Part shown: positions 1-44,273 of the stretch, piece by piece
Position numbering within the stretch: position 1 is the stretch's first letter
How the letters are laid out: each line of letters opens with the position of its first letter
From: Patescibacteria group bacterium
Lineage (GTDB): Bacteria; Patescibacteriota; Patescibacteriia; UBA9934
NCBI GenBank assembly: GCA_041666145.1
Contig: JBAYHK010000001.1
Span: 67,810-131,809 of the forward strand
Length of the DNA: 64,000 nucleotides
Direction: 5' to 3'
Translations under genes and position numbers: made by a program
The notes under the pieces: generated by a model
Databases searched by the model: none
Told to the model about the DNA's origin: nothing
The model's input: only the letters and a program-made list of their open reading frames with translations

Positions 1-1893
1 AATCGCAGAAAGAAGTGTATCTGAAGCCTTTTGCAAAGCACTTTCCTGGTCAACTTTTGCTTGCGAAGCTTTTCCAACATCATCACCCTTTGCAATTGGC
101 GCCAACACATCGGCGTACGCAATGTAGCCACGAGCAAGGTCGACAGAGTATCGAGGATTATTCGGAGCGAGAAGAACAGCCTCTTGATATGCAGCGATTG
201 AAAATGACGCAGCATCTGCAACAAGCGGCGAGACTTCGCGATAAATATCTCCACGCAATTCCCAGTTTGTTACGTTCGTCGGCCCAAGCTCAGTCGCACG
301 AATCGATGCATTTACCGCAGCACCAATGAGCGATTTGATGAGCTCAGGATTTACATCTGTTTCTTTTGCAAGCGCAGTCACCTTCTGTAACAAGGCACTT
401 CCGAGATTTCTGTAATACACGTCGCTCCACCTGTTCGCCGATGCCGCACCATCAAGAGCAATGATCACGTCATCAATTCGTCCACCTCCAGCGCTCAACG
501 CAACGGCTCGAGCGAAAATAATATCGGCACGATATTTTGAAACCGTCGTAAATGCTACCGTTAAAATAAATACTGACGTCACTACAAAAATAAGTGCAGC
601 AATAAAACTTGCCCGTGGAGAACGATCCAATGAAAATGTCCTACGAGAAAAAACGATCGAACGAAGCGTTAATGCGAAAAGGATCCAGAAAAGAACGGTC
701 AATGTAAAATTCTGCGGATACACAAACCATGCGGCAAAAATAACCAGCCAGCCAATTAACCCTGGCAAATCTTCTGGATGTTGCGTTCGACGATATGCCA
801 AAATCGCAAGAATCGATACGGCACCGAATCCAAGAATAAATGCGATAGTCGCAAGAACACCAAATGTTGGAAGCGTTGTAAGCATTCCAGAAGATGCGCG
901 ATCAAAACGAGTGTCCCAAAATGATGTTGTGTTCAAATCTGCGCTATGAAACTTTGCAAAATCTGCAACATACGTTCCTGGACCAGTGCCAAAAAGCCAA
1001 TGCCCGTCCTGTAATGTTTCCGTTGCAATCTTCCAAGAACTTGATGTGTTCAATGAAACTTCAGAAACAAAAGGATTACTTACTAGGGTTGGAAGAATAG
1101 AAAAAAACAACCCGCTTACCAAAAGAATCATCGGAAGAATGAAACGTGTAGGGCGCGTTAAGAGCACCGGGTGGACCAAAGCGAGCGCGAAAAGCGCAGC
1201 ACTCCCAAAAATGGCAAGCCCCCAAAGCACAACATAATCAACTGCAAGCAATGTCATCAACGCCGTTATCGAAACAATTACGGTGGAGACAATCGCCAAG
1301 GTTCGCTGCAATGGAGAATCATAATTTCCAATCATGACCGCGGCAGAACCAACCAAAGACATTACAATAAGATAAACTGCCAATGCGTTTGGCATGCCAA
1401 CAAGATTCATCGGCAATACGTCAGAAGAAATACCAAAAAATGTTAAAGATGCAATAAAACCTACAAACGCCGCTCCAGCTACTGCAGCAATAGTCATTCG
1501 TCGAACTGTGCGGCTATCGAGCATCTGCGAACCAACATACGCAAGCGCTATTCCAAAAAATATCGTCACAACGCTTGTGTATTCCTGATTTGCCTGACCA
1601 AAAATACTCGTATACGAATCTGGAGAAAACACTGCGGAAAGTACTGCGCATCCAAAAAAGATTACACACGGAATCCATACCTTCCCAAAATTTACCTCAA
1701 CAGTTCGAACGAGCAGCGCTCGGCCAAGCCACGCCAAAATTGCGATAGTCGCAAGAAAATAAAAGAGTGCCTGTTTGTTGATTTCGAGCGGACTGACCGT
1801 CCACGGAAGAACAAGGACGGGTACAAGGAATGCAATCCCCTCAAATGTACGTAAAACAATAGCCCGAAGAAGAGACGGAAAATCAATTCGCAT
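1..1893 (-). CDS. Polytopic membrane protein, O-antigen-ligase/Wzy_C-like with soluble C-terminal domain; partial, runs off the window start
   Basis: Minus-strand frame is open from the ATG at 1893 to position 1 (not in the ORF track because there is no in-window stop). Translation begins MRIDFPSLLRAIVLRTFEGIAFLVPVLVLPWTV and shows more than 10 hydrophobic helices. The plus-strand ORFs here (461..1588) are low-complexity shadows. Confidence 0.6.
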   Translation of the reverse strand, partial: MRIDFPSLLRAIVLRTFEGIAFLVPVLVLPWTVSPLEINKQALFYFLATIAILAWLGRALLVRTVEVNFGKVWIPCVIFFGCAVLSAVFSPDSYTSIFGQANQEYTSVVTIFFGIALAYVGSQMLDSRTVRRMTIAAVAGAAFVGFIASLTFFGISSDVLPMNLVGMPNALAVYLIVMSLVGSAAVMIGNYDSPLQRTLAIVSTVIVSITALMTLLAVDYVVLWGLAIFGSAALFALALVHPVLLTRPTRFILPMILLVSGLFFSILPTLVSNPFVSEVSLNTSSSWKIATETLQDGHWLFGTGPGTYVADFAKFHSADLNTTSFWDTRFDRASSGMLTTLPTFGVLATIAFILGFGAVSILAILAYRRTQHPEDLPGLIGWLVIFAAWFVYPQNFTLTVLFWILFALTLRSIVFSRRTFSLDRSPRASFIAALIFVVTSVFILTVAFTTVSKYRADIIFARAVALSAGGGRIDDVIIALDGAASANRWSDVYYRNLGSALLQKVTALAKETDVNPELIKSLIGAAVNASIRATELGPTNVTNWELRGDIYREVSPLVADAASFSIAAYQEAVLLAPNNPRYSVDLARGYIAYADVLAPIAKGDDVGKASQAKVDQESALQKASDTLLSAI

Positions 1894-1902
1894 ACAGAAA
1901 AA

Positions 1903-4900
1903 TTATAGAGCACCCTCGACAGAAGGAGAAACCGGATCAATATTGCTTGAAGTTTCTGGTGCAACAGGATCGGCAACAATAGGAGCTATAGGAGCTTGCG
2001 ATTCTTCATGAGACAAAATTTCCGACTCGACAACTTCAGAATCGACGACTGGGACAACCGCGTCTTCGCCAATAACACCATCAACAACTCCGTCATCAGC
2101 AACCGCAGGAGACTCTACAGCGTCATCAATCCCGTCCTCTGGCTCGGGAATCGGATTCGCCTCTCCCGATGTATTCGCTCCACCGGTCTCAATAACGGGA
2201 GCAGGAACTATCTCGTCAACTTCATCCTGCAAATCTTGAGACGGCGCAAAATCTCGACGATACGCAATGACTATCCAATCAACATCAACTCCGCTTGATG
2301 CCGTACCAGATTCAACAATATCAAATCCATCGACTGTTCGATTCGTAACATAAAGAGATCCAGTTGCTCCGTATGGTGTTACCAAGGCTCGATATGTTGG
2401 GTTGATGTCGATAATAGATACGAACTTCGGATCGATGTCGGAGAATCGAACAGAAGCACGGCCATGATCGAGTGCGACTGTGCCAGAAAGCTGCACAGTC
2501 ATTTCTCGAGATGCCGCAGCGTACGTCTCAACATTTTCGCCAGATACAGACTGTACTAACTGAATTAAACGCCCAGACGTTACAAGATCGCCGCTCGACT
2601 CAAGTCGCCACGAACCAGAAGATCCAGCCAATGATCCAATTGCAAGAAGTTGACCGCCATTAAAATTCAACACTCCAGACGTATCAAAATTCTCAATATC
2701 TTGAGTAAGCTTAGAAATAGAATTTTCTGCGCCTGGTCCTTCTTCAACTGGTGTACCGGCGTAATATGAAACATTGACGTAAACAACGATCGATCCAGTT
2801 ATGCCAGAGAATGATTCAGCTGCATATCCAAGAATTGGCCCGGCTTCGGTAGCTCTCATTGCAAAGCCTGGCATAGATGCTGTTGTGAGTGGGTCACCAA
2901 TGTGAATCGCGCCATTTTCTGTAGAGACAAATGTTGGCACACGACCGGCCAATGCAATAGGATAACTACCAGCGCGATTTTCTCCAGCAAGGAATCCTGG
3001 CTTTGTAGAAACAATTCCAGCGACTATTTGGCTATACGTCTCACCAGTCGATCGTTTTACATACTGGCCCTCATCACCAAAAACAACGACTTCTCCTGGC
3101 TGGAGTCCATCTCTTGAGGCAAACATTTCAGCGAAGTCATATGAACCCGTTGCCCAGCCAGAAGAATTTGTTCGCATGAAACTTCCACCAATACCAGCTG
3201 AACCATCGTAATAAATATATGCAGAATCCTGGACTGCCCCACGATCTGAAGGATAAAATTTCCCCGCGAGTGACAAATCTCCGGAATGACTAATCGAGGC
3301 GACTTCAATTCCATCATTATTCGTTACAGACAGCCGATAATCATCTGCCGCAGCAACCGTAGTGCGCAATGACATTTCCCGCGTCTCCGCAAATGCCCCG
3401 GTCCATGCAGATCCTCGAAGTTCAAGATTCGCCGAGTTCATGGCAGAAGTCGCGCTCGTTGCTGCCGTTACTGCAGCAATCGCAAGACTTCCAGAAACCT
3501 GAGTCGCGGATCCATTCTTGGTAAAAACATCTCCCGCATACCAATGCGGCTGAACAAGAACACGAATTGTTCCGGAACCGCTCAAAAGCGACTCAAGAGC
3601 AAAACCAATAATGCGTGTTGGGCCATTTGCTTTAGCGCCATATCCCTCAACTGTCGTTGATACTGCAATTGGATCGCCAACAGAAATCGCGCCATGATCT
3701 GTATTCACCTTTGTATCAATCTGCCCAACAAGACCAACCAAGCGATACGCAGGATTATTTCGCAAGTCTTCTGCTCCATCTCCAACAATATTTCCAATAA
3801 ATGCTGGATTTGTAGAAATAACACCAAGAACATTTTGCGCTCCTAAAGAACATCTCTCAACATGACTCGGATTTAACGAATCTGTACAAGCGAGCAATGA
3901 CGCCTGTAGCAATCCATCTGTTGTTGAAAAGTATTCAGCAAAGTCAGCACCAGCACCAGAAAATGCACCATCTGCATACACATCACCAGCACTTGTTATG
4001 CGGAATTCAGTGTCTGACGCAGCCCCGCCACTCGCAATACCAGAACGAAGTATTACCGCGTCATCCGCACTAGGATCTTCAAAAATGTCTATAACCAAAG
4101 CGTTATTGCCAGTATCATCCGCAACATGTGCACTTGTAGTATTTTGAGTAATAATAAGGCCAATTGAACCCGTTCCACCTTTATTACTAATCTTGAGTAC
4201 ATCTCCAGAACCACCGCTCGTATCCAAATTCTCCAATGAAACCAATGTTCCGGAATATTCTGTGGGACCAAGGTCGTCGCCTCGAGTAATGTTTAACGCA
4301 GAGCCAGACGTTAATGAATTCAACGTCCACTCCGATGCATTCTCTGTAGTAACAGCGGAAGTAAAAGAAATCTCAGAAAAGCTGCTTGCACTTCCAAGCG
4401 TTAACATTCCTTCTGCATCTAAAGAGCCAAGAAACATCGCATCTCCTTCGGCATCAACGGTAAATCTATCCACGCTACTCACACTAACACCAAAAAGCAT
4501 TTCATTAGCCACAACTCCAGCGACGTCTGGATTTACAGATAATGAAGCACCAGTTCCCGCCGAAGTCTGCGGCGCACCTGTAATGACTAAATTACCAAAA
4601 CTATTAAATGCAGGAATCATCTTCACCGTAGATCCAATAATAGTAGAATCCATTCCGTCAAGAACATCGGCGTTCATTGCGTATGGCGTAGCAAGCATTT
4701 GCTTGCGCGGCAGCAATGATTCTCCGTTAACCGTTACCTGTAAATAAACGCTTGCGTTCTCTGAAAAAACTTCAGAGCCTATGGCCGCATAGTCCCCGCC
4801 ACCAAGCGCCTCAGAAAATAATCCGGCATTAAGTGTTACGTTTCGGGCAGCAACAGACGCGCAAGTTGCAGAATTATTCGACCATAAACACGTTCCTGCC

Positions 4901-5139
4901 GTTGGGTCAGTATAAAACGCAAACGACATAAGCATCGAGGTATCAGACAAAGGAACGTTATTGCTATTCAATAAACGCCCTTGATACATCACGATGCGCG
5001 GTGGAGCAGCGGGAGTCGCCTGAACACGCGCAATGCCAACATATCCACCCGCCACAAGAACACATGCAAAAATAAAGCTTGCAAAGAGACGCTTTGCAAA
5101 CATTGAAAAGGAAAAAATCTTCACATCCCCCCTGGTCAT
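1903..5139 (-). CDS. Large secreted surface protein (1078 aa): signal peptide, G/S/T/A-rich, two internal ~130 aa repeat modules, acidic C-terminal tail
   Basis: N-terminal signal peptide (FAKRLFASFIFACVLVAGG). Internal repeats GVISTNPAFIG...GAISVGDPI...YAG and GIVSTKPGFLAG...GAIHIGDPL...YAG, each preceded by a D[FY]AE[YM]F motif. Last gene of a 4-gene operon, with ATGA overlap to the upstream gene. Confidence 0.75.
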   Translation of the reverse strand: MTRGDVKIFSFSMFAKRLFASFIFACVLVAGGYVGIARVQATPAAPPRIVMYQGRLLNSNNVPLSDTSMLMSFAFYTDPTAGTCLWSNNSATCASVAARNVTLNAGLFSEALGGGDYAAIGSEVFSENASVYLQVTVNGESLLPRKQMLATPYAMNADVLDGMDSTIIGSTVKMIPAFNSFGNLVITGAPQTSAGTGASLSVNPDVAGVVANEMLFGVSVSSVDRFTVDAEGDAMFLGSLDAEGMLTLGSASSFSEISFTSAVTTENASEWTLNSLTSGSALNITRGDDLGPTEYSGTLVSLENLDTSGGSGDVLKISNKGGTGSIGLIITQNTTSAHVADDTGNNALVIDIFEDPSADDAVILRSGIASGGAASDTEFRITSAGDVYADGAFSGAGADFAEYFSTTDGLLQASLLACTDSLNPSHVERCSLGAQNVLGVISTNPAFIGNIVGDGAEDLRNNPAYRLVGLVGQIDTKVNTDHGAISVGDPIAVSTTVEGYGAKANGPTRIIGFALESLLSGSGTIRVLVQPHWYAGDVFTKNGSATQVSGSLAIAAVTAATSATSAMNSANLELRGSAWTGAFAETREMSLRTTVAAADDYRLSVTNNDGIEVASISHSGDLSLAGKFYPSDRGAVQDSAYIYYDGSAGIGGSFMRTNSSGWATGSYDFAEMFASRDGLQPGEVVVFGDEGQYVKRSTGETYSQIVAGIVSTKPGFLAGENRAGSYPIALAGRVPTFVSTENGAIHIGDPLTTASMPGFAMRATEAGPILGYAAESFSGITGSIVVYVNVSYYAGTPVEEGPGAENSISKLTQDIENFDTSGVLNFNGGQLLAIGSLAGSSGSWRLESSGDLVTSGRLIQLVQSVSGENVETYAAASREMTVQLSGTVALDHGRASVRFSDIDPKFVSIIDINPTYRALVTPYGATGSLYVTNRTVDGFDIVESGTASSGVDVDWIVIAYRRDFAPSQDLQDEVDEIVPAPVIETGGANTSGEANPIPEPEDGIDDAVESPAVADDGVVDGVIGEDAVVPVVDSEVVESEILSHEESQAPIAPIVADPVAPETSSNIDPVSPSVEGAL

Positions 5140-7079
5140 ACGGGCTTTTTCCGCTCAAGCGGAACATCAACTACCATCGGCTCAGGCTCACGCTTCTGTC
5201 GGTAATCAATCGGACGAACAGTCCGCTCTTCATATCCGGCCTTATTCGTAGTCACGAAATATTCGTTTGGACCAACAATGAAACTATACCGACCAAGCGC
5301 ATCAGAAATCGTTGATTCCACAAGTTTATTATACTTTGGTTCAAAGAGTCGAATGATCGCATTGCCCACAGGACGCCTTGTTTTCACATCATAAACAACG
5401 CCCCAACCTCGAGGCTTCTTTGGCCGAGCAAGGCGCCAGAATAAAATGAAAACTATAACCTGAAGAACAACGAGCCCGATGGTGAACAATGAGGGCGACA
5501 AGAAACAGGCAACAATGGAAAGAAACGAACCGGAAAGTGAAAAAACAAACTGTAATCTTCGCAAAAGCCTTCTACGGAAAATGTATTTTGGCTCTTGTAT
5601 TTTCTGATCTTGCGCAACGTCAAGCGGAATGTTCGCTGCAATCGTCGCGTCTCTATCAGTAACTTCAACAATTTGACCCGTATAGACATCAAGAAAAACG
5701 CCGTCATCCTTCACTCCAGTTAAATACGTACTCGGAAAAATAAATCCGTTTCTCGTAACGGCAACCCTATACTGTCCGGGGCTCGCAACGAAAAAATATT
5801 TTCCGTCAACGCCAGTAACCATTGAGTTCAAAAGGCGTCCTGTAGCAATATTGTATAAACGAACGATTGCAAGATCGACAGGAACTTTTGTCACCGCATT
5901 GTAAACAATACCAAAAGCCCTTCGTCTCCTACGAGAAATGAACAGGAATGGCGAAGTGAAAAGAAATTGCAAATACGAAAATAAATTAAACGACGTTGCA
6001 AGAATTGCTATTGTTGCGACCGCGGCAGCAAGCCCCAAGGGAACTGCAACATCTACTACTGCAGTTCTGATATCTAACAAAACACGATCTTCTTGCACTT
6101 CCTCTACAGTTACCGATTCTACTATCGGCGGCAGAGAAAGCTCTGGCTCTTCTGACTCAAAAATAGGCTCCTCTATTGGCAACACCGGAAGAACTTCTGT
6201 TCCCTCCTCTTTAACAACGTCAATAACCTCATTACCGACGTCTTCCAAAAAATCCTGTAAAACATCTGGAACGTAAGCACTGCCTTCAGAATTATCTGAA
6301 GGTGATTCCTCATAAAAGTTATCTGGCGGATAGCCAGGGACTTCCGGAACCACAGGAATCTCTGCTACAGGCTCTTCGTCTATTGGTACCTCTGGTACAA
6401 CAGGAACAACAGGAACCTCGGGCCCCTCATCCGATTCTTCTTCTGGAAATGGAACATATCCGCCGTCTGGGCGGTCTCCTCCACCGCCACCAGGAGACAA
6501 CTGGGTTGGCACAGTCGCACCAACCGTCGGTCCTCCAGTTGATGTTATCTCCAAAATAAGAGAACCATGATTTCCGATCAAACCACTTTCGCCTTCTTTT
6601 AGTTTTATAAAATAGGAATTCACCACTGACGGGTTTGTAATCCGGTTTATTCCGGAACCAAAAGTGTGAGCATTCGTTCCGACTTCAATAGTCACGACGC
6701 TTCCTGTCGCTATAGACCCCCCATCCCCAGCACATATTCCCAAGCTCAGATTCTGACCCGTGACTGTTACGGAAACATTATCAGACGCAAGGCAATCAGA
6801 AGCTGTTGTGAGTTGAATATAGTCATCTGCAATGTCAACGTCATCTTCGGTTATTGCCGCTAAGTCAAACCCCACAGGAAAGGTAAACAAGACGGAAGAT
6901 CCCTCGGGAATGTTCGTGACTGTAGTAAAAACAAATTTATGGTTTGATCCCATCGATGCCTGCATGCTCGTTGGCTGATCTGTAAAGTCTATAACGGTAG
7001 CAGCGAAAAGCTTACACGGAAAAAATGCGATAAAAATCGCAAAGAAGAAAATAACATTTTTAAAAATAATCCTCCGCAT
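5136..7079 (-). CDS. Membrane-anchored surface protein with Pro/Glu-rich linker and two carboxypeptidase-regulatory-like (CarboxypepD_reg / PEGA-like) domains
   Basis: Signal peptide MRRIIFKNVIFFFAIFIAFF. Linker PEVPVVPVVPEVP. Two TM segments, each followed by the pattern G.VY...T..PV..A.V.L.......T..DG.Y.F....G.Y.V...K.G. Confidence 0.7.
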   Translation of the reverse strand: MRRIIFKNVIFFFAIFIAFFPCKLFAATVIDFTDQPTSMQASMGSNHKFVFTTVTNIPEGSSVLFTFPVGFDLAAITEDDVDIADDYIQLTTASDCLASDNVSVTVTGQNLSLGICAGDGGSIATGSVVTIEVGTNAHTFGSGINRITNPSVVNSYFIKLKEGESGLIGNHGSLILEITSTGGPTVGATVPTQLSPGGGGGDRPDGGYVPFPEEESDEGPEVPVVPVVPEVPIDEEPVAEIPVVPEVPGYPPDNFYEESPSDNSEGSAYVPDVLQDFLEDVGNEVIDVVKEEGTEVLPVLPIEEPIFESEEPELSLPPIVESVTVEEVQEDRVLLDIRTAVVDVAVPLGLAAAVATIAILATSFNLFSYLQFLFTSPFLFISRRRRRAFGIVYNAVTKVPVDLAIVRLYNIATGRLLNSMVTGVDGKYFFVASPGQYRVAVTRNGFIFPSTYLTGVKDDGVFLDVYTGQIVEVTDRDATIAANIPLDVAQDQKIQEPKYIFRRRLLRRLQFVFSLSGSFLSIVACFLSPSLFTIGLVVLQVIVFILFWRLARPKKPRGWGVVYDVKTRRPVGNAIIRLFEPKYNKLVESTISDALGRYSFIVGPNEYFVTTNKAGYEERTVRPIDYRQKREPEPMVVDVPLERKKPV

Positions 7080-7083
7080 GAAA

Positions 7084-7899
7084 TTATCGTCGACGAAGTA
7101 CCAAGATCACGCCACCGACCGTACCAGCAAAGAAAACGAGCGGAATCCAACGGATGCCAGCATCAACGTCTGAACATGACGATGATAAAAAATCTGTCTC
7201 AAAGGAAAAATGCATCGGACCAAATGCCCACCACGGCACCGATAGTTCGTCACTCGTCCAAGAACGTGTCTGGCCAGCAAGTACACGACGGTGAAGAGGA
7301 TTGCTTTCTATCGCTGAAAACGCAATGTCGAATGGCCCTTTAAGCACGATTTTACCCTCATCGTACAGTATACCCTGGCCCTCATTTTGCAGCGTAATAT
7401 TAAAAGATCCATTTTGATTTTTAGAAAAGCTTTTACAGATAATCAATGGAGCTGGAGACCCGACCGTGATAAAGACTAAAGTCGCAGTGCCGTGTGCAAA
7501 AGAAATTGCCCCCTCTATTACATTAGTAACAAGGATTGCAAATACATATGACCCAGATTGAACGCTCGAATCAGGGTTCACGATAAACACAAGATCGCTA
7601 AAAGTCTCCGACTCAATATTCGCATTTGACTTCGAAAACGAGATCCACGAAACATCATCAGCGGCCGAACCAAGATTCGGAGATCCGTCTTCCGCAAACG
7701 AAACATGAACAATCGAAAACCTTGCATCAGTAGACTTCAAAATGGTCTTTTCAACAGGTAGCGTAAAGGTCTTCTGATCACCCTGAAAAACACTAACGTC
7801 TATCGCCGAAGGAGCAGGGGAAGCTAACACCAAACCTGGAAAACCCAAAAAAATAAAACACGTCAACACGATAGTTTTAATAAATCGCTCAAAGCGCAT
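7084..7899 (-). CDS. Secreted hypothetical protein with C-terminal TM helix plus RRR anchor
   Basis: ORF-track 7084..7992 trimmed to the internal Met (MRFERFIKTIVLTCFIFLGFPGLVLASPA, a signal peptide), which avoids overlap with the upstream gene. C-terminus ...IPLVFFAGTVGGVILVLRRR. Confidence 0.6.
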   Translation of the reverse strand: MRFERFIKTIVLTCFIFLGFPGLVLASPAPSAIDVSVFQGDQKTFTLPVEKTILKSTDARFSIVHVSFAEDGSPNLGSAADDVSWISFSKSNANIESETFSDLVFIVNPDSSVQSGSYVFAILVTNVIEGAISFAHGTATLVFITVGSPAPLIICKSFSKNQNGSFNITLQNEGQGILYDEGKIVLKGPFDIAFSAIESNPLHRRVLAGQTRSWTSDELSVPWWAFGPMHFSFETDFLSSSCSDVDAGIRWIPLVFFAGTVGGVILVLRRR

Positions 7900-7903
7900 A
7901 TCC

Positions 7904-8833
7904 CTAGTACTCTCCAACAAAAATCGCCGTAAGAACCTGACTATATCTTCCGCCTGCTTGCGACGAAGAAATCCCAACCTTAAGCGTAACAAAACCTGGA
8001 ATTACAAACGGGTGAGCAGATTCGCTAGCAACGAGAAGCGGAGTCGATGAAAAGGCCGTATCCTGAGTGTCGAATGTCGACAATGATAATGAAGGATCCG
8101 AGGAACGCCCTCCATATTCGCTCGACCCCGATGAAACTGATCCATCTGTAACTCCGGGAATAAAATCCGAATCGGAACGAAGGTCTCCGTCGGAAAAAAT
8201 ATAAACAGAATAGCCATCATCTACGTCCGCAGTTGCTGTCCATCCAATCGTGTGAGTGGCGACGCTGGAATTCAATAAAGTACCAAAATTAATGGACGAA
8301 GAAGTCCCCATTCGGTAAACATAGTCGTTTACGCCATCAATAGTAGGGATAGGACCAGCTAATGGAACTGGGATTGTAATCACCGGACTAGAAATCCCAG
8401 AAGCCTGAACCATTGTCGTCACCTGGTCTTCCCCCTCATCCTGAACAACTAAAATATAATCGCCTGCAGAAAACTCTGAGGTTGAAGTAACAGTAATCTC
8501 TCCTCCTCCTACCAGTGGTGTGTACCGAAGAGCGGCGACCTGCGTGCTCCTATCTTGAATATAAGGGATATAGCTAATAACGCGATTGTAAACGCCAGCC
8601 CGAAACCCCTGAGAAATTGAATAACTGTCAGAGGAAGCCGTACTCGATGCCGAATCCGAAATGCTCCCCCGTAAATTATAAGAAGTCGACGAAGAGTCTC
8701 CTCCTCCTGAAGAAATCTCATCCCATTGAATCTGATAATTCGTAGAAGTCATTCCAGCTAAAACAAAGCTAGATCGAAAAGTGCAAAATATTGCAAATAT
8801 AAGCAAAATAAATACTATCTTTTTTCTAAACAT
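7904..8833 (-). CDS. Secreted hypothetical protein (first gene of surface-protein operon)
   Basis: 309 aa ORF with signal peptide MFRKKIVFILLIFAIFCTFRSSFVLAG. Ser/Thr/Gly-rich. No recognisable catalytic motif. Confidence 0.6.
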   Translation of the reverse strand: MFRKKIVFILLIFAIFCTFRSSFVLAGMTSTNYQIQWDEISSGGGDSSSTSYNLRGSISDSASSTASSDSYSISQGFRAGVYNRVISYIPYIQDRSTQVAALRYTPLVGGGEITVTSTSEFSAGDYILVVQDEGEDQVTTMVQASGISSPVITIPVPLAGPIPTIDGVNDYVYRMGTSSSINFGTLLNSSVATHTIGWTATADVDDGYSVYIFSDGDLRSDSDFIPGVTDGSVSSGSSEYGGRSSDPSLSLSTFDTQDTAFSSTPLLVASESAHPFVIPGFVTLKVGISSSQAGGRYSQVLTAIFVGEY

Positions 8834-9018
8834 AATCTTAGCCGTTCTCTATAAACTCCATAATGCGTCATGTGAGAATTGAAAACAACGCAAAAGAACA
8901 CACTCTGTGGATAAAGTATGGATATCCCTGTTTATATTCGGTGTCTATGTTAATAATACATATTTGTCTACACCTTTGTAGACAAACTTATTCGATGAAA
9001 TCGGAGTTTATCAACAAG

Positions 9019-9032
9019 GTTTCACGTGAAAC
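9019..9032. promoter_or_regulatory. parS: parS site 1 (perfect palindrome GTTTCACGTGAAAC; matches ParB-binding consensus tGTTNCACGTGAAACa)
   Basis: Exact 14 bp palindrome, extended gGTTTCACGTGAAACat. Confidence 0.7.
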
Positions 9033-9243
9033 ATCGAAAATATAACTCTCTCTCCGGCCTTGCAGCCGGGGTTTCTCGTGCTAATCGATCGTTCGTTCTC
9101 GCTACTCATCTTGAAGCGAGCTCGAATGGAGACTGCATCCTCGACCTAACGGTACGAGGCTTTACGCTGGACGAATAAAAACTAAACGAGAAATCCAGGA
9201 GCAAAATTGCCCTAAGGCGCCATTTTCACAAATCCTAAAAACT

Positions 9244-9257
9244 GTTTCACGTGAAAC
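9244..9257. promoter_or_regulatory. parS: parS site 2 (TGTTTCACGTGAAACA)
   Basis: Exact 16 bp match to the firmicute-type parS consensus. Confidence 0.7.
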
Positions 9258-9466
9258 ATTAAAATCGGATGACGGCAAATCTCTAGACGGCAAACCAATT
9301 CAAAAATCTCCTTTTAAGGGTTTTCCTCGCAGCTTGCTGCGTTTCCACTCTTAGGCAGAAGAAGCTAATCAATTGAGCCCCGATGCCTCGCCGAAGCTCT
9401 GCGAGGGCACAGCTTGCTGCGAGGAGGTTCATCGATAATTTCCGAACAAATCAATTCAACCCATTT

Positions 9467-9480
9467 TGTTTCACGTGAAA
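9467..9480. promoter_or_regulatory. parS: parS site 3 (core of 22 bp perfect palindrome TTTTGTTTCACGTGAAACAAAA)
   Basis: Exact palindrome lying between an intergenic spacer and the tRNA-Ala 3' end. Confidence 0.7.
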
Positions 9481-9512
9481 CAAAACACCCGCACTTTACA
9501 TGCGGGTGTTTT

Positions 9513-9588: not shown

Positions 9589-9684
9589 CAAATTTTGACC
9601 TTAGGCGAGATTTAAATCTCGAACTCCTTTCTTTTTCAGAACCAAATCTGAAAATCAATAGTCTCGAAGCCCATTCCAAGATAT

Positions 9685-9698
9685 GTTTCACGTGAAAC
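9685..9698. promoter_or_regulatory. parS: parS site 4 (core of 22 bp perfect palindrome ATATGTTTCACGTGAAACATAT)
   Basis: Exact palindrome between tRNA-Ala and tRNA-Arg. Confidence 0.7.
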
Positions 9699-9745
9699 AT
9701 ATCTTTACATCCAATTCTTCAACTAAAAAATTTCAGATCAAAACC

Positions 9746-34904: not shown

Positions 34905-35002
34905 TTATCCACTCTTTTTGCCACCTTATCCACACTTTCATCCACTTTTCGACAAAATTGACGGCCTTTACACCTGTGGACAATTGGCTATGCTGTGGCC
35001 AA
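34905..35002. promoter_or_regulatory. DnaA-box cluster in rpmH-dnaA intergenic region (TTATCCACT, TTATCCACA, TCATCCACT, TGTGGACAA, TGTGGCCAA)
   Basis: Five boxes within 100 bp, including one perfect consensus. Classical oriC / dnaA promoter context. Confidence 0.7.
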
Positions 35003-35056
35003 TCGTCACGTCTGTCAGGGGATTTACGCCCTGTCACGTTGGTTGCCATCGAGACT

Positions 35057-36448
35057 ATGAATACCCACGAGCTTTGGGAGGCTGTTCTAGGAGAATTGGA
35101 GCTTGTTGTTAGCAAGGCGCATTTCACTACGTGGTTCAGACATACGTTCATCTGTGACTACAAGAATGGGGAAGTTGTTATTGGCATTCCGAATACCATT
35201 ACCCAACAATGGATCAGCAAAAAGCATCATCGAGACATCATTGAGAGCATCCAAAACATCACCAACCAATCCGTTCGTAGTCTTACCTATCGTGTCGCGA
35301 TAAAAACAAACGCTACGCAGCCACTCATTATTGAAGAAAAGAAGCCGCTCATTCCAGAGGCGCACGAAGATTACGGATTCATCCCAACCGGAGGCTCTGC
35401 GGAGGGCGCCACAGGAACAGGAACGATCACAGTAAATCCTTCATACACATTCCAGACCTTCGTTGTTGGCAAACAGAATGAGCTCGCTCATGCAGCCGCA
35501 CAAGCAGTGGCAGCACAACCAGGCGGCGCCTATAATCCGCTGTTCATCTACGGAGGCGTCGGGCTCGGCAAAACGCATCTTCTTCACGCCATCGCAAACG
35601 AAATGCGCCGCCGCAATCCAAGCGTTCGAATTCTTTACGTCACCTGTGAACGCTTCACCAACGACTTCATCAACGCGATTCGTTCAGGAAAGGGAAAAGA
35701 ATTCAAAGACCGCTACCGCAACGTCGACCTTCTTCTTATTGATGACATTCAGTTCATCACAGGAAAAGAAGGAACACAGGAGGAATTTTTCCACACATTC
35801 AACGCGCTTCACCAAGAACAGCGTCAAATCGTCATTTCGTCAGACCGTCCACCAAAATCCATAGCAAGTCTTGAAAAGCGACTGCAGTCACGACTCGAAT
35901 GGGGAATGCTTGTAGATATTGGAATGCCAGATCTTGAAACGCGCATCGCCATTTTGCAAAAGAAATGCATGGAGAAAGCCTTTCAACTCGATCGTGAAAT
36001 TCTTCATTACGTCGCATCGAACATCTACTCGAACATTCGCGAGCTTGAAGGCGCACTGAACAAAATCATCGCCATCCACCAATTCCGCAACATCGAACCA
36101 ACTCTCGAAAGCGTAAAGCCGATCATTACAAGCTTTGAATCTGAAAATGTTCGGAAGACCGTTACTCCACGCCAGCTCATCTTAGTAGTCTCTGAATATT
36201 TCGACATCACCATTGAAGACATCCTTGGAAAGTCTCGCGAAAAAAAGCTCGCCTTTCCACGCCAGATCATCATGTATCTCATGCGTGAAGAGATGAAAAC
36301 GTCATACCCTGCGATCGGAAACGAACTTGGCGGACGCGACCACACCACTGCAATGCACGCCTACGGCAAAATCGCGAACCTCTTAAAAGAGGATGAAAAA
36401 CTTCAAAAGGATCTCGAACTTATAAAACAGAAACTTTACGCGGGATAA
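35057..36448 (+). CDS. dnaA: Chromosomal replication initiator DnaA
   Basis: AAA+ Walker A GGVGLGKTHLL. Box VII and C-terminal DNA-binding domain. ORF-track start trimmed to MNTHELW. Confidence 0.95.
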   Translation: MNTHELWEAVLGELELVVSKAHFTTWFRHTFICDYKNGEVVIGIPNTITQQWISKKHHRDIIESIQNITNQSVRSLTYRVAIKTNATQPLIIEEKKPLIPEAHEDYGFIPTGGSAEGATGTGTITVNPSYTFQTFVVGKQNELAHAAAQAVAAQPGGAYNPLFIYGGVGLGKTHLLHAIANEMRRRNPSVRILYVTCERFTNDFINAIRSGKGKEFKDRYRNVDLLLIDDIQFITGKEGTQEEFFHTFNALHQEQRQIVISSDRPPKSIASLEKRLQSRLEWGMLVDIGMPDLETRIAILQKKCMEKAFQLDREILHYVASNIYSNIRELEGALNKIIAIHQFRNIEPTLESVKPIITSFESENVRKTVTPRQLILVVSEYFDITIEDILGKSREKKLAFPRQIIMYLMREEMKTSYPAIGNELGGRDHTTAMHAYGKIANLLKEDEKLQKDLELIKQKLYAG

Positions 36449-42256: not shown

Positions 42257-42352
42257 GTTAGTCACTAACTTAGTTTCGCGTGTTTCTAGCCCCGTGCCAC
42301 GGCACGATTCTGAGACGATGAAAAAAATACCTCGATTGCTCGAGGTATTTTT

Positions 42353-42428
42353 TTGGAGGCCGTGGCCAGAGTCGAACCGGCGAATCGCGGTTTTGCAGAC
42401 CGCTGTGTTAACCACTTCACCACACGGC
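42353..42428 (-). tRNA. tRNA-Cys (anticodon GCA)
   Basis: Reverse complement reads GGCCGTGTGGTGAAGTGGTTAACACAGCGGTCTGCAAAACCGCGATTCGCCGGTTCGACTCTGGCCACGGCCTCCA. Discriminator U. Terminator hairpin aaaatacctcgattgctcgaggtatttt immediately 3'. Confidence 0.85.
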
Positions 42429-42497
42429 CAAAAGTTGCGAAGAGAATGTATCAGAAAGGTGTGTTTCAGGCAAAAATCCTTACGATATACTTGGCGC

Positions 42498-44273
42498 ATG
42501 AAAAAGGAGGGGAAGAGACTTTCATGGGCGGTATTTTGGTCTATTGTCGGCCCAGCATTTCTTGGAACGCGATGGCGATATGCGCTCATTATATTTTGTA
42601 TTGTTGTTACTGCGCTTGCTCAGGTTGCCGAGCCGGTACTTTTTGGAAGGATTATTGATGAGATCGGGTTCGGAACGGCAACATTACTCGAGCGCGTCAC
42701 CCCGATACTTCTTTTTTGGGTCAGTGCTTTTGTAGTGAAAATTGTTGTTGGGCAGGGTGCTATGTGGTTGAGCTGGGAAGCTGGAAATGTTGTCGACCTT
42801 GCATTCCTTCGTATTATTTTGCGTCGGATGATTTTTTGGGATCCGGATCGTTTTGGCAAGGAATCGAGTGGGGCGATTGCAAAAAGAGTAGACCAGGTCT
42901 GGGACAAGATGGATGATTTTTCAGGAAGAATGCTCGTTGACGTGTTGCCGCAGGTTATAGGATTTGTAGCAGTTTTTATTGCAGGAATGGTGATTAATTG
43001 GAAGATGACGCTTGCATCGCTTGTGGTCATTCCTATTATCGCTCTTGTGACATTGGTTGTTTATACAAGGACGCATGAGAAGCAAGAAAAGTTGGCCGTC
43101 TTTTGGGAGGGGCTTTCCGCACAAGTTTATGAGACCTTGTCGAACATTCTTCCGATCAAGATTTTTTCTGGTGAAGAACGAGTGTTAAAAGATCTTGATT
43201 CGCGTGCTGAAAAAGTAATTCGACAACAGAATGAGCTTAATCGTGTTTGGGGAGCTTTGGAAACTGGATCGGGGCTTCTTCGGCTTTGCGCACGGATCAT
43301 TGTTATTGGTTTTGGTATTTATCTTATTAGCAATGGGGAGATCACGCTTGGTGTTCTTACGACGTTCCTGGGGATGCTTAATCAAATGCTTTCTCCATTT
43401 GATTATCTTTTGGCTGATGTTTTACGAAGAGCGCGAAAAATTCAAGGAGCCTTTGGACAGTTGTCGAAAGACTGGGATGAAAAGAATCTTATTGAAGAAG
43501 TTCCTTCGCCGGTGCGACTTCAAAATGCGGCAGGAGCGATTTCGTTTAAAAATGTTTCGTATACATATCCCGGAAAGTCGCAGTATGCATTGAGGAATAT
43601 TTCATTGACTGTTCCTGCTGGAAAGAGCTTGGCTCTGGTTGGTCGATCGGGAAGTGGAAAGTCGACGTTGGTAAAGTTTGTGAATCGTTTCTTGGATCCG
43701 TTGTCTGGAGCTGTCACTATTGACGGCGTTGATCTGCGACGGGCGAAGATTCAAGATGTTCGTCGATCGGTTGGTGTTGTGCAACAAGATACGGTGTTAT
43801 TCAATGACACGATTTTTAATAATATTCGTTTCGCGAATCCGAAGGCGACGAGGAAAGAGATTGAGGCGGCGTGTAAATCAGCCCAAGCGCATGAGTTTAT
43901 TTTGAAATTGCCAAAGGGATATAACACGCTGGTCGGAGAACGCGGTGTGAAGCTTTCTGGTGGCGAACGTCAGCGATTAAGTCTTGCTCGTGTATTCTTG
44001 GCAGATCCCCCAATCTTGATTCTTGATGAGTCGACAAGTGCGCTCGATTCTGAAACAGAAGCGAATGTGCAAGGGGCGCTCGCGAAGGCGATGAAGCAAC
44101 GAACAACGATTGTGATCGCGCATCGATTGTCGACGGTGTATTCGGCGGATAGGATTGTTGTGCTTGATCAGGGAAGGATTGTTGAGCAGGGAACACACGA
44201 AGAATTGCTGAATGACGGTGGGGTTTATGACAAACTTTGGCGGCTGCAGTCAGGCGGATATTTGCCGGAATAA
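42498..44273 (+). CDS. ABC exporter, fused permease/ATPase (MsbA-like)
   Basis: 6 TM N-domain. Walker A GRSGSGKST. Signature LSGGERQRLSLAR. Walker B ILILDE. The ORF-track N-terminal extension overlaps tRNA-Cys and is rejected. Confidence 0.9.
   Translation: MKKEGKRLSWAVFWSIVGPAFLGTRWRYALIIFCIVVTALAQVAEPVLFGRIIDEIGFGTATLLERVTPILLFWVSAFVVKIVVGQGAMWLSWEAGNVVDLAFLRIILRRMIFWDPDRFGKESSGAIAKRVDQVWDKMDDFSGRMLVDVLPQVIGFVAVFIAGMVINWKMTLASLVVIPIIALVTLVVYTRTHEKQEKLAVFWEGLSAQVYETLSNILPIKIFSGEERVLKDLDSRAEKVIRQQNELNRVWGALETGSGLLRLCARIIVIGFGIYLISNGEITLGVLTTFLGMLNQMLSPFDYLLADVLRRARKIQGAFGQLSKDWDEKNLIEEVPSPVRLQNAAGAISFKNVSYTYPGKSQYALRNISLTVPAGKSLALVGRSGSGKSTLVKFVNRFLDPLSGAVTIDGVDLRRAKIQDVRRSVGVVQQDTVLFNDTIFNNIRFANPKATRKEIEAACKSAQAHEFILKLPKGYNTLVGERGVKLSGGERQRLSLARVFLADPPILILDESTSALDSETEANVQGALAKAMKQRTTIVIAHRLSTVYSADRIVVLDQGRIVEQGTHEELLNDGGVYDKLWRLQSGGYLPE

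Follow-up and report, generated by a model that had tools for sequence, protein, structure and literature searches.

The 64,000-nt window analyzed here (contig JBAYHK010000001.1 of an ultrasmall, Uhrbacteria-like Patescibacteria group bacterium, positions 67,810-131,809 of the forward strand; all coordinates count from the window start) carries at its beginning a set of tightly packed minus-strand genes, g1 to g5, which we propose to encode a Pam-type surface appendage with a phage-like fiber (Table 1). An earlier note on this DNA had described g1-g4 as a four-gene operon whose members are separated by 4 nt or overlap by ATGA and all carry signal peptides. The list of open reading frames (ORFs) and inspection of the junctions and sequences confirmed this layout: g1 and g2, as well as g2 and g3, are separated by 4 nt, g3 and g4 overlap by ATGA, and each of the four products begins with a Sec-type signal peptide, recognizable by its basic n-region, its hydrophobic core and a site resembling A-x-A. 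The four packed genes are, however, followed by a fifth. Since the ATG of g5 at position 1893 lies 9 nt past the g4 stop codon and g5 is orthologous to the gene that follows g4 in related loci (52-57% identity over 631 residues to a gene of 775-790 codons), the unit comprises five genes, presumably transcribed together. Proteins identical to those of the window are on record in metagenome-assembled genomes named "Patescibacteria group bacterium" (WCT28_00365-00380 and WC776_03430 onwards), and the database name of all four products g1-g4 is "hypothetical protein".

Table 1. Coordinates and assignments of the genes, domains and upstream elements of the g1-g5 locus (aa, amino acids; TM, transmembrane; AF2, AlphaFold2; TPR, tetratricopeptide repeat)
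Feature	Position	Strand	Description	Basis or remark
g1	7904..8833	-	309 aa; predicted secreted Pam-superfamily pilin	NCBIfam; AF2/Foldseek
g1 N-terminal extension	8585..8755	-	aa 27-83	three S-x-(N/S)-Y-x-(I/L) strand-like motifs
g1 C-terminal domain	7907..8305	-	aa 177-309; predicted pilin (acceptor) domain	aligns with NF058581 positions 2-67 and with the C-domain of PamT-like and two-domain pilins
g2	7084..7899	-	271 aa; predicted secreted two-domain PapD/CsuC-like chaperone, C-terminal TM helix + RRR	AF2; Foldseek
g2 C-terminal TM anchor	7090..7146	-	aa 252-270, then RRR	helix in AF2 model
g3	5136..7079	-	647 aa; pilin-type N-domain, Pro/Glu spacer, 3-TM module	
g3 N-domain	6507..7001	-	aa 27-191, pilin-type	ends in linker V186-G-A-T-V-P191
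g3 spacer	6075..6506	-	aa 192-335, Gly/Pro/Glu-rich	includes PEVPVVPVVPEVP
g3 membrane module	5139..6074	-	aa 336-647	TM1, beta-sandwich 1, TM2/TM3, beta-sandwich 2
g4	1903..5139	-	1078 aa; predicted secreted tail-fiber-like adhesin	Pfam Peptidase_G2
g4 N-domain	4630..5010	-	aa 44-170, beta-rich, MAT-N-like	directly behind the signal peptide
g4 G2 module 1	3532..3945	-	aa 399-536; starts DFAEYF	predicted cleavage A398/D399
g4 G2 module 2	2734..3138	-	aa 668-802; starts DFAEMF	predicted cleavage Y667/D668
g4 acidic tail	1906..2304	-	aa 946-1078, low complexity	
g5 (partial)	1..1893	-	at least 631 aa in the window; about 12 TM segments	C-terminal TPR beyond the window
Sigma-70-like site TCTACA-18-TATTAT	8953..8982	-	only such site upstream of g1	consensus scan; site count not above shuffled expectation
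Inverted repeat	8962-8987	-	11-bp stem GTTTGTCTACAAAGGTGTAGACAAAT; upstream of g1, about 120 nt from its start	overlaps the promoter-like site

The g1 protein was matched by the NCBIfam model PamT (NF058579) with an E-value of 3e-8 over its N-terminal 78 residues only, and residues 177-242 gave a weak match to positions 2-67 of Pam_pilin_C (NF058581, E=0.039, 14 bits against a cut-off of 55). In the g1 family, PamT was matched by 45 of 52 members (best 9e-16) and Pam_pilin_C by 23 of 52 at E<=0.01 (best 1.3e-8, all under the cut-off). At 33 bits against a cut-off of 240, g1 is not a PamT equivalog but a relative with an extra domain of about 90 residues. All 157 homologs found with a word index came from Patescibacteria or Uhrbacteria. 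An exhaustive profile search with g1 returned 1457 cluster representatives (50% identity) at E<=1e-3, setting the size of the superfamily at no fewer than 1457 clusters. Many of these are proteins of about 220 residues that match g1 in two pieces, the N-terminal extension and the C-domain, and others, of 320-406 residues, are two-domain pilins (about 350 residues) that match the C-domain; the Pam matches of both groups were all significant and below threshold. In the alignment with the two-domain pilins, the strongly conserved g1 segment P163-Y173 occupies the position of their donor linker. Taken together, these comparisons suggest that g1 is a distant member of the Pam-pilin superfamily, namely a PamT-like protein with its extra domain in the middle.

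The AF2 model of g1, with a predicted local distance difference test score (pLDDT) of 81, has two beta domains, with no structure assigned to residues 24-81. Pilins of chaperone-usher (CU) systems dominated the Foldseek comparison of this model with the PDB, with CsuA/B at the top (probability 0.99, TM-score 0.51), followed by CS17, CfaB, PapA, FimA and FimG, whereas a sequence search of the PDB with g1 yielded nothing useful. The N-terminal extension is common to the PamT-like proteins of about 220 residues and contains a series of invariant or nearly invariant positions (M28, S30, N32, Y33, W37, D38, G43, G44, Y52, R55, Y71, G76, R78 and G80), yet its pLDDT in the monomer is below 50; we regard it as a candidate donor-strand or partner-binding segment. 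Scans of the window with hidden Markov models (HMMs) detected no second pilin of the PamA/PamB type, i.e. one composed of an N-terminal beta-sandwich, a donor linker and a C-domain.

In the AF2 model of g2 (pLDDT 86.6), two beta-sandwich domains are followed by a helix formed by residues 252-270. Foldseek listed 554 PDB matches at E<=1e-3, the best of them to CsuC (E=2e-9), with CfaA, FimC, SfaE, Caf1M, PapD, EcpB and CupB2 next. We predict with high confidence that g2 adopts the PapD/CsuC-type two-domain chaperone fold with a transmembrane anchor, which is the architecture of PamC and PamD. At the level of families this kinship is not visible: 23 homologs of g2, all of which keep the TM segment, gave no match to the Pfam domains PapD_N and PapD_C at E<=1, nor to any PapD, WxLIP or Pam chaperone model of NCBIfam or Pfam. 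The C-terminus of g2 reads ...IPLVFFAGTVGGVILVLRRR, and the earlier note had noticed its TM helix and terminal RRR and interpreted them as a sortase-like sorting tail without LPXTG. The helix and the arginines do resemble the end of a sorting signal, and a sortase-assembled pilus or set of wall-anchored adhesins of the Gram-positive kind could in principle be encoded here. However, no LPXTG-like motif precedes the helix, the best LPXTG_anchor match in the g2 family has an E-value of 0.55, the operon contains no sortase, and the modeled fold is that of a CU chaperone rather than an isopeptide-bonded pilin. We consider such an assembly hardly credible; the tail is a plain membrane tether, as in PamC and PamD.

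An HMM of the N-domain of g3 matched the N-domains of the two-domain Pam-like pilins of about 350 residues encoded in metagenomic cassettes, with E-values down to 8e-43. The alignment covers both the N-domain and the linker that follows it, QVTVSATVDP in the pilins and V186-G-A-T-V-P191 in g3, with V190 invariant; beyond the linker, g3 has its spacer and membrane module where the two-domain pilins have the acceptor C-domain. This kinship surfaced only once the metagenomic two-domain pilins were added: early searches with the N-domain gave a probability of 11% in hhalign against the g1 profile, and nothing in the PDB profile search and NCBIfam. The spacer contains 24 Pro and 39 Asp+Glu in 145 residues, and in one g3 homolog it matches a Pro-rich region of TonB. 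The membrane module has hydrophobic blocks at residues ~339-378 and 509-553, and the CarboxypepD_reg-like domain that follows each of them (Pfam PF13620, E=7e-14, two stretches) agrees with the previous description of two TM segments, each preceding a carboxypeptidase-regulatory-like beta-sandwich. No match to this module was found in the PDB; one beta-sandwich gave weak matches to phage_tail_N (Pfam) and to a tail-fiber family of PHROG. Because the hydrophobic blocks are bordered by the basic clusters RRRRR, RRRLLRR and RLARPKKPR, the positive-inside rule would predict an external location for the first 335 residues and a cytoplasmic one for the two beta-sandwiches.

Since g3 joins a pilin-type N-domain and donor linker to a membrane module and has no acceptor domain, it is a candidate terminator/anchor, which would donate a strand to a pilin while being fixed in the membrane. 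We consider this the most specific new proposal of the analysis. The closest parallels are PapH and PamR: g3 can in principle donate a strand but has no domain with an acceptor groove, which would halt growth and secure the base of the fiber. It differs from them in being integral to the membrane and in having a long, rigid spacer and two beta-sandwich domains predicted to be cytoplasmic. No FnIII or RbmA-like protein is present (the PamR-type terminator is RbmA-like, with two FnIII domains and a TM segment), and g3, although different, could do the same job.

The structural comparison of g2 also allows another interpretation, in which g2 is not a chaperone. WxLIP proteins of monoderm WxL clusters consist of two Ig-like domains and a C-terminal TM helix and are predicted to insert a hairpin into their partner (PMC10599100). 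By analogy, g2 could be a permanent anchor that holds g1 by beta-strand insertion in a display complex that does not polymerize, with g1 as a PamT-like cap and g3 and g4 as separately anchored adhesins. The two-Ig-domain organization with the C-terminal helix, the presumed monoderm envelope and the predicted strand insertion fit this idea, as does the closeness of g1 to PamT, a single-domain "tip" protein. Moreover, the only PDB profile match of g2 was to WxLIP, although non-significant (E=0.08), and the g2 model resembles the E. faecium WxLIP structures 9i1y and 9i25 (E about 1e-6). On the other hand, CU chaperones match the g2 model better than WxLIP does (2e-9 versus 8e-7), and no WxL-domain partner or WxLIP Pfam domain (DUF916/DUF3324) was detected in the locus. 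The extra middle domain of g1 and its conserved linker at the donor-strand position of two-domain pilins also count against it, and the donor-linker motif of g3 makes sense only with a pilin C-domain as its recipient. We therefore consider a WxLIP-like complex unlikely and prefer to interpret g2 as a chaperone.

In g4, the Pfam domain Peptidase_G2 (PF11962, the intramolecular chaperone autoproteolytic cleavage domain) was found at residues 374-451 with 33.7 bits, above the gathering cut-off of 25 bits. The two repeat modules, which had been recognized before together with the D[FY]AE[YM]F motif in front of each and the acidic C-terminal tail, share 31% identity (pairwise E=3e-18). Among the g4 orthologs, the motif of module 1 is conserved as D[FY]AE[YFL]F and that of module 2, DFAEMF, is nearly invariant. 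Comparison of the motif region with phage intramolecular chaperones, which had been suggested as a check, was positive: the module profile matched the pre-neck appendage protein gp12 of phi29 at residues 688-768 (E=8e-6), where gp12 reads NTWS-DFAEYFES, and also a "chaperone domain D4" of another tailspike. The g4 motifs at positions 399 and 668 align with DFAEYF at gp12 residues 692-697, and the cleaved C-terminal fragment of gp12 (PDB code: 3gqh) starts with DFAEYFES. Reportedly, Xiang et al. in 2009 assigned catalytic roles to gp12 D692, the P1' residue, and to E695, the Glu three residues further on. Because DFAE[YM]F is the motif of the gp12 cleavage site, we predict that it is a G2 self-cleavage motif and that g4 is cut between A398 and D399 and between Y667 and D668. 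The resemblance to the G2 domain of gp12 (3gqh, 3suc and 6qz9) extends beyond the identical DFAEYF to homologous "GV(I/V)S..P.F" and "GL.GQ" strands. It is limited by the arrangement, since g4 has two internal modules of ~135 residues each and gp12 has a single C-terminal region of 163 residues, and by the nature of g4, a cellular, Sec-secreted protein.

The N-domain of g4 matched Bdello_MAT_N (NF053851) with E=1e-3 and 18.9 bits, and three orthologs gave 3e-6 to 2e-5 (24-27 bits), all below the cut-off of 60 bits. MAT fibers of Bdellovibrio are trimeric and phage-like, with an invariant cell-proximal N-domain directly behind the signal peptide and variable tips that are used on prey (Caulton et al. 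2024, PMC10769870; NF053851). They share with g4 the signal peptide, a conserved beta-rich N-domain of ~130 residues, a long variable fiber and a phage-type autoproteolytic chaperone, and they are borne by a bacterium that lives on other bacteria, as in our comparison does the organism studied here. They differ in that their chaperone is of the S74 type and that of g4 of the G2 type, in the sub-threshold N-domain scores of g4, and in the position of g4 within a pilus operon. The acidic tail of g4 contains 31 Asp+Glu and 2 Lys+Arg in 133 residues (23% Asp+Glu versus 10% elsewhere in the protein). The orthologs vary in length from 984 to more than 2200 residues while their ends are conserved, which is what would be expected of a host-recognition protein. 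A sequence search of the PDB with g4 gave nothing useful.

To follow the cassette through other genomes, we scanned relatives at one genome per species; 108 were found and 80 kept, most of them titled Candidatus Uhrbacteria. To count the modules, we used HMMs derived from the proteins of the window together with orthologs of these, and the denominators include only loci with enough sequence to show the module. In the Uhrbacteria-type loci, g2 was present in 76 of 78, the g3 N-domain in 67 of 67, the g3 membrane module in 61 of 61 and the g4 N-domain in 55 of 55. The gene order of the cassette is kept in roughly 80 species-level genomes, mostly Uhrbacteria, and the flanking PolA-HolA-S20-RmuC genes are syntenic across related genomes as well. 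With the cassette and its flank both kept, the synteny is far beyond chance, which argues against a mobile element.

This bears on the possibility that a degenerate prophage or the remnant of a tailocin-like element is present here, with g4 as the phage tail fiber and its neighbors as phage accessory proteins. Peptidase_G2 is typical of phage tail spikes, and the weak phage_tail_N and PHROG matches of g3 point in the same direction. Nevertheless, g1, g2 and g4 match no PHROG family, and the tail-fiber match in g3 is the single weak one; no capsid, portal, terminase or tail-tube genes lie nearby, all products carry Sec signal peptides, and in about 80 species the genes occupy the same chromosomal position, next to the same housekeeping genes and near parS and oriC, and show no anomaly in GC content. 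A phage remnant is thus very improbable.

A further scan of metagenomes with PamT-like proteins recovered 80 loci, in which the HMMs detected a g2-like gene in 48 of 57, the g3 membrane module in 29 of 36 and the g4 N-domain in 17 of 31. In these variants g5 is sometimes the first gene of the cassette, and some loci contain extra pilins. They are relevant to the view that g1-g5 are unrelated envelope proteins that form no common structure and are kept adjacent only by their proximity to the replication origin. Such a view is favored by the synteny that the housekeeping flanks show as well, and by the fact that the case for a joint function is built from sequences and models. It is contradicted by the recurrence of the same five modules in other orders and with other neighbors in divergent metagenomic loci, including the fusion described below, and by the complementarity of the domains (an acceptor, a chaperone and a donor without acceptor), so that we regard it as improbable.

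Several of the metagenomic loci contain unusual members of these families. Two-domain Pam-like pilins were found in other cassettes of the candidate phyla radiation (CPR), flanked by a PamT-like gene and a g2-like chaperone (L089 10662-11771; L090 10657-11757; L091 10694-11791; L100 8273-9376 and 9380-10429; L116 3875-4957). A single frame of 1332 codons in L092 (10656-14651) combines a g2-like chaperone (residues 26-242) with a membrane module of the g3 type (residues 1005-1310) and also encodes two hydrophobic segments; it appears to be a natural g2-g3 fusion that joins both functions. Three loci (L102 1338-9260, L105 1-3507 and L129 5261-10408) encode giant proteins of 1169-2641 residues with a pilin C-domain of the Pam type at their end (matching the PamT-like HMM with E about 1e-40); these are candidate tip adhesins of related cassettes, with a design like that of FimH and PapG.

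The system to which the locus is most readily compared is the Pam pilus of Ca. Mycosynbacter amalyticus; Pam pili were described for Saccharimonadia and Microgenomatia in a preprint of 2026, according to which donor-strand exchange links pilins whose Ig-like C-domain is truncated (Troman et al., 10.64898/2026.03.03.709456). The Pam system has PapD/FimC-like chaperones, PamC and PamD, with a C-terminal TM helix, no usher and a membrane-anchored fiber terminator, with a "tail fibre-like protein" being central to pam neighborhoods; the NCBIfam models NF058579 and NF058581 derive from the same work (10.64898/2026.03.03.709456). The locus resembles this system in its restriction to CPR, the signal peptides on all components, a putative truncated Ig-like pilin C-domain, the chaperone with a TM helix, here g2, the absence of an usher, the candidate membrane-anchored terminator and the tail-fiber-like neighbor. 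It differs in having one PamT-like pilin, into which a middle domain is inserted, where the Pam pilus has PamT, PamA, PamB and PamE, one chaperone instead of two, and, instead of the RbmA-like PamR, an anchor, g3, made of a pilin N-domain, a linker, a Pro/Glu spacer and a 3-TM module with two beta-sandwiches. In addition, it has the polytopic TPR protein g5, its scores all lie under the NCBIfam cut-offs, and its Uhrbacteria-like lineage is not named in the preprint. The locus thus looks like a reduced and divergent Pam variant in a lineage that the preprint does not name, with an anchor of another kind and a G2-type fiber integrated into it. With the archaic and classical CU pili (Csu, Cfa, Fim and Pap) the locus shares the predicted folds of g2 (CsuC, CfaA, FimC and PapD) and of the g1 C-domain (CsuA/B, CfaB and PapA), and the logic of acceptor, chaperone and terminator; unlike them, it lacks an outer membrane and an usher, its chaperone is tethered to the membrane, and none of its five products gave a PapD_N, Usher or PapC match.

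Because a pilin-like g1, a CU-type chaperone fold in g2, the anchor g3 and the fiber g4 are packed and conserved together, we interpret the locus, with a probability of about 0.68, as an operon of five genes for a CPR surface appendage of the "Pam" type, dependent on Sec, assembled with a chaperone but no usher and combined with a phage-like receptor-binding fiber, probably an organelle for attachment to a host. The earlier suggestion of a surface appendage or host-adhesion apparatus is thereby supported by the assignments of its parts, while the statement that no component matches a named family no longer holds, given the relationships to the Pam models, the PapD/CsuC fold, Peptidase_G2 and Bdello_MAT_N. 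In the proposed mechanism, all products would be exported by Sec, as their signal peptides indicate. The chaperone g2, which its C-terminal helix would tether to the outer face of the cytoplasmic membrane, would cap the incomplete Ig-like C-domain of g1; its fold is modeled, and the function is deduced from it. Subunits of g1 would then be linked by donor-strand exchange, with either the linker P163-Y173 or the N-terminal extension as donor. By its domain logic and the analogy with PapH and PamR, g3 would donate the last strand and thus end the structure, while its rigid Pro/Glu spacer and 3-TM module would anchor it through the wall. The fiber g4 would fold as a trimer aided by its pair of internal G2 autochaperone modules, undergo self-cleavage in front of D399 and D668, be held at the cell or the pilus by its MAT-like N-domain, and touch the host with its variable part. 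g5 would be an accessory polytopic TPR protein.

Several points weigh against this interpretation. The scores of g1 are far under the NCBIfam cut-offs for both Pam models, its sequence is nearer to the proposed tip subunit PamT than to the polymerizing PamA and PamB, and none of its Foldseek matches in the PDB is individually significant (E about 1e-2). g2 has no sequence-family assignment from Pfam, NCBIfam or the PDB profile search, and its model also resembles WxLIP, which is regarded as a stable anchor and not as a chaperone. The G2 modules of g4 are internal and tandem, whereas those of phages are C-terminal and single, and the proposed model does not account for the link of g4 to g1 or g3. 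Finally, filaments, polymerization, cleavage and co-transcription are, for this lineage, predictions from genes and models.

A more far-reaching version of the proposal, which we regard as doubtful, is that the pilin, the tethered chaperone, the g3 platform, the fiber and g5 form together a host-capture organelle general to many CPR lineages and working unlike the CU and Pam pili as described. A short donor-strand-linked stalk would end in the membrane-integral g3, whose two cytoplasmic beta-sandwiches would report or control attachment, and the phage-derived trimeric fiber would mature by two successive G2 self-cleavages; the whole might be coupled to a parS/ParB array (see below). CPR bacteria, or Patescibacteria, account for a large part of bacterial diversity and seem to spend their lives attached to other cells. 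To our knowledge, their attachment machinery is known only for a few cultured Saccharibacteria. To this the analysis adds the idea of a membrane-integrated terminator built from a pilin N-domain and a donor linker, a phage- or MAT-like fiber with tandem self-cleaving modules as a probable host-recognition element, and a conserved cassette of five modules with which attachment genes can be located in uncultured CPR genomes. The variable fiber g4 could aid the prediction of host range.

For g5, searches of Pfam, NCBIfam and PDB profiles returned TPR matches only. Residues ~295-345 contain the conserved motif WLFG(S/T)GPGTY...FWDTRFDR..S..LT.LPT.G, which, together with the 12 TM segments and the TPR, resembles an O-antigen ligase or GT-C-type protein glycosyltransferase; we rejected this assignment, as none of the profile searches supported it. 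A role of g5 in glycosylation or assembly is speculative, glycosylation being a guess from the architecture alone.

Upstream of g1, the inverted repeat that overlaps the sigma-70-like site (Table 1) is a possible operator. Further upstream, four copies of the consensus parS sequence TGTTTCACGTGAAACA were found at 9018-9033, 9243-9258, 9467-9482 and 9684-9699, three of them exact and one with 15 of 16 matching positions, spaced by about 220 bp and interleaved with tRNA-Ala and tRNA-Arg genes; there are no further copies elsewhere in the window. The palindrome was at first read as an operon-specific operator or a CRISPR-like array, but Tandem Repeats Finder detected no tandem repeat and the sequence is that of consensus parS. 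Among 164 related loci, 46 contain its exact 14-mer core, in up to 14 copies and always a short way upstream of the gene that begins the pilus cassette. This adjacency may reflect either synteny near the origin or a functional link to ParB. With dnaA at 34958-36448 and a change of sign of the GC skew at about 37-38 kb, the replication origin lies within the window, about 26 kb from the operon. Elsewhere in the window, ARAGORN identified a tRNA-Cys gene at 42354-42429 on the minus strand, within the 5' end of a plus-strand ORF of 659 codons called from a GTG (42294..44273); the true start of the ORF is probably further downstream.

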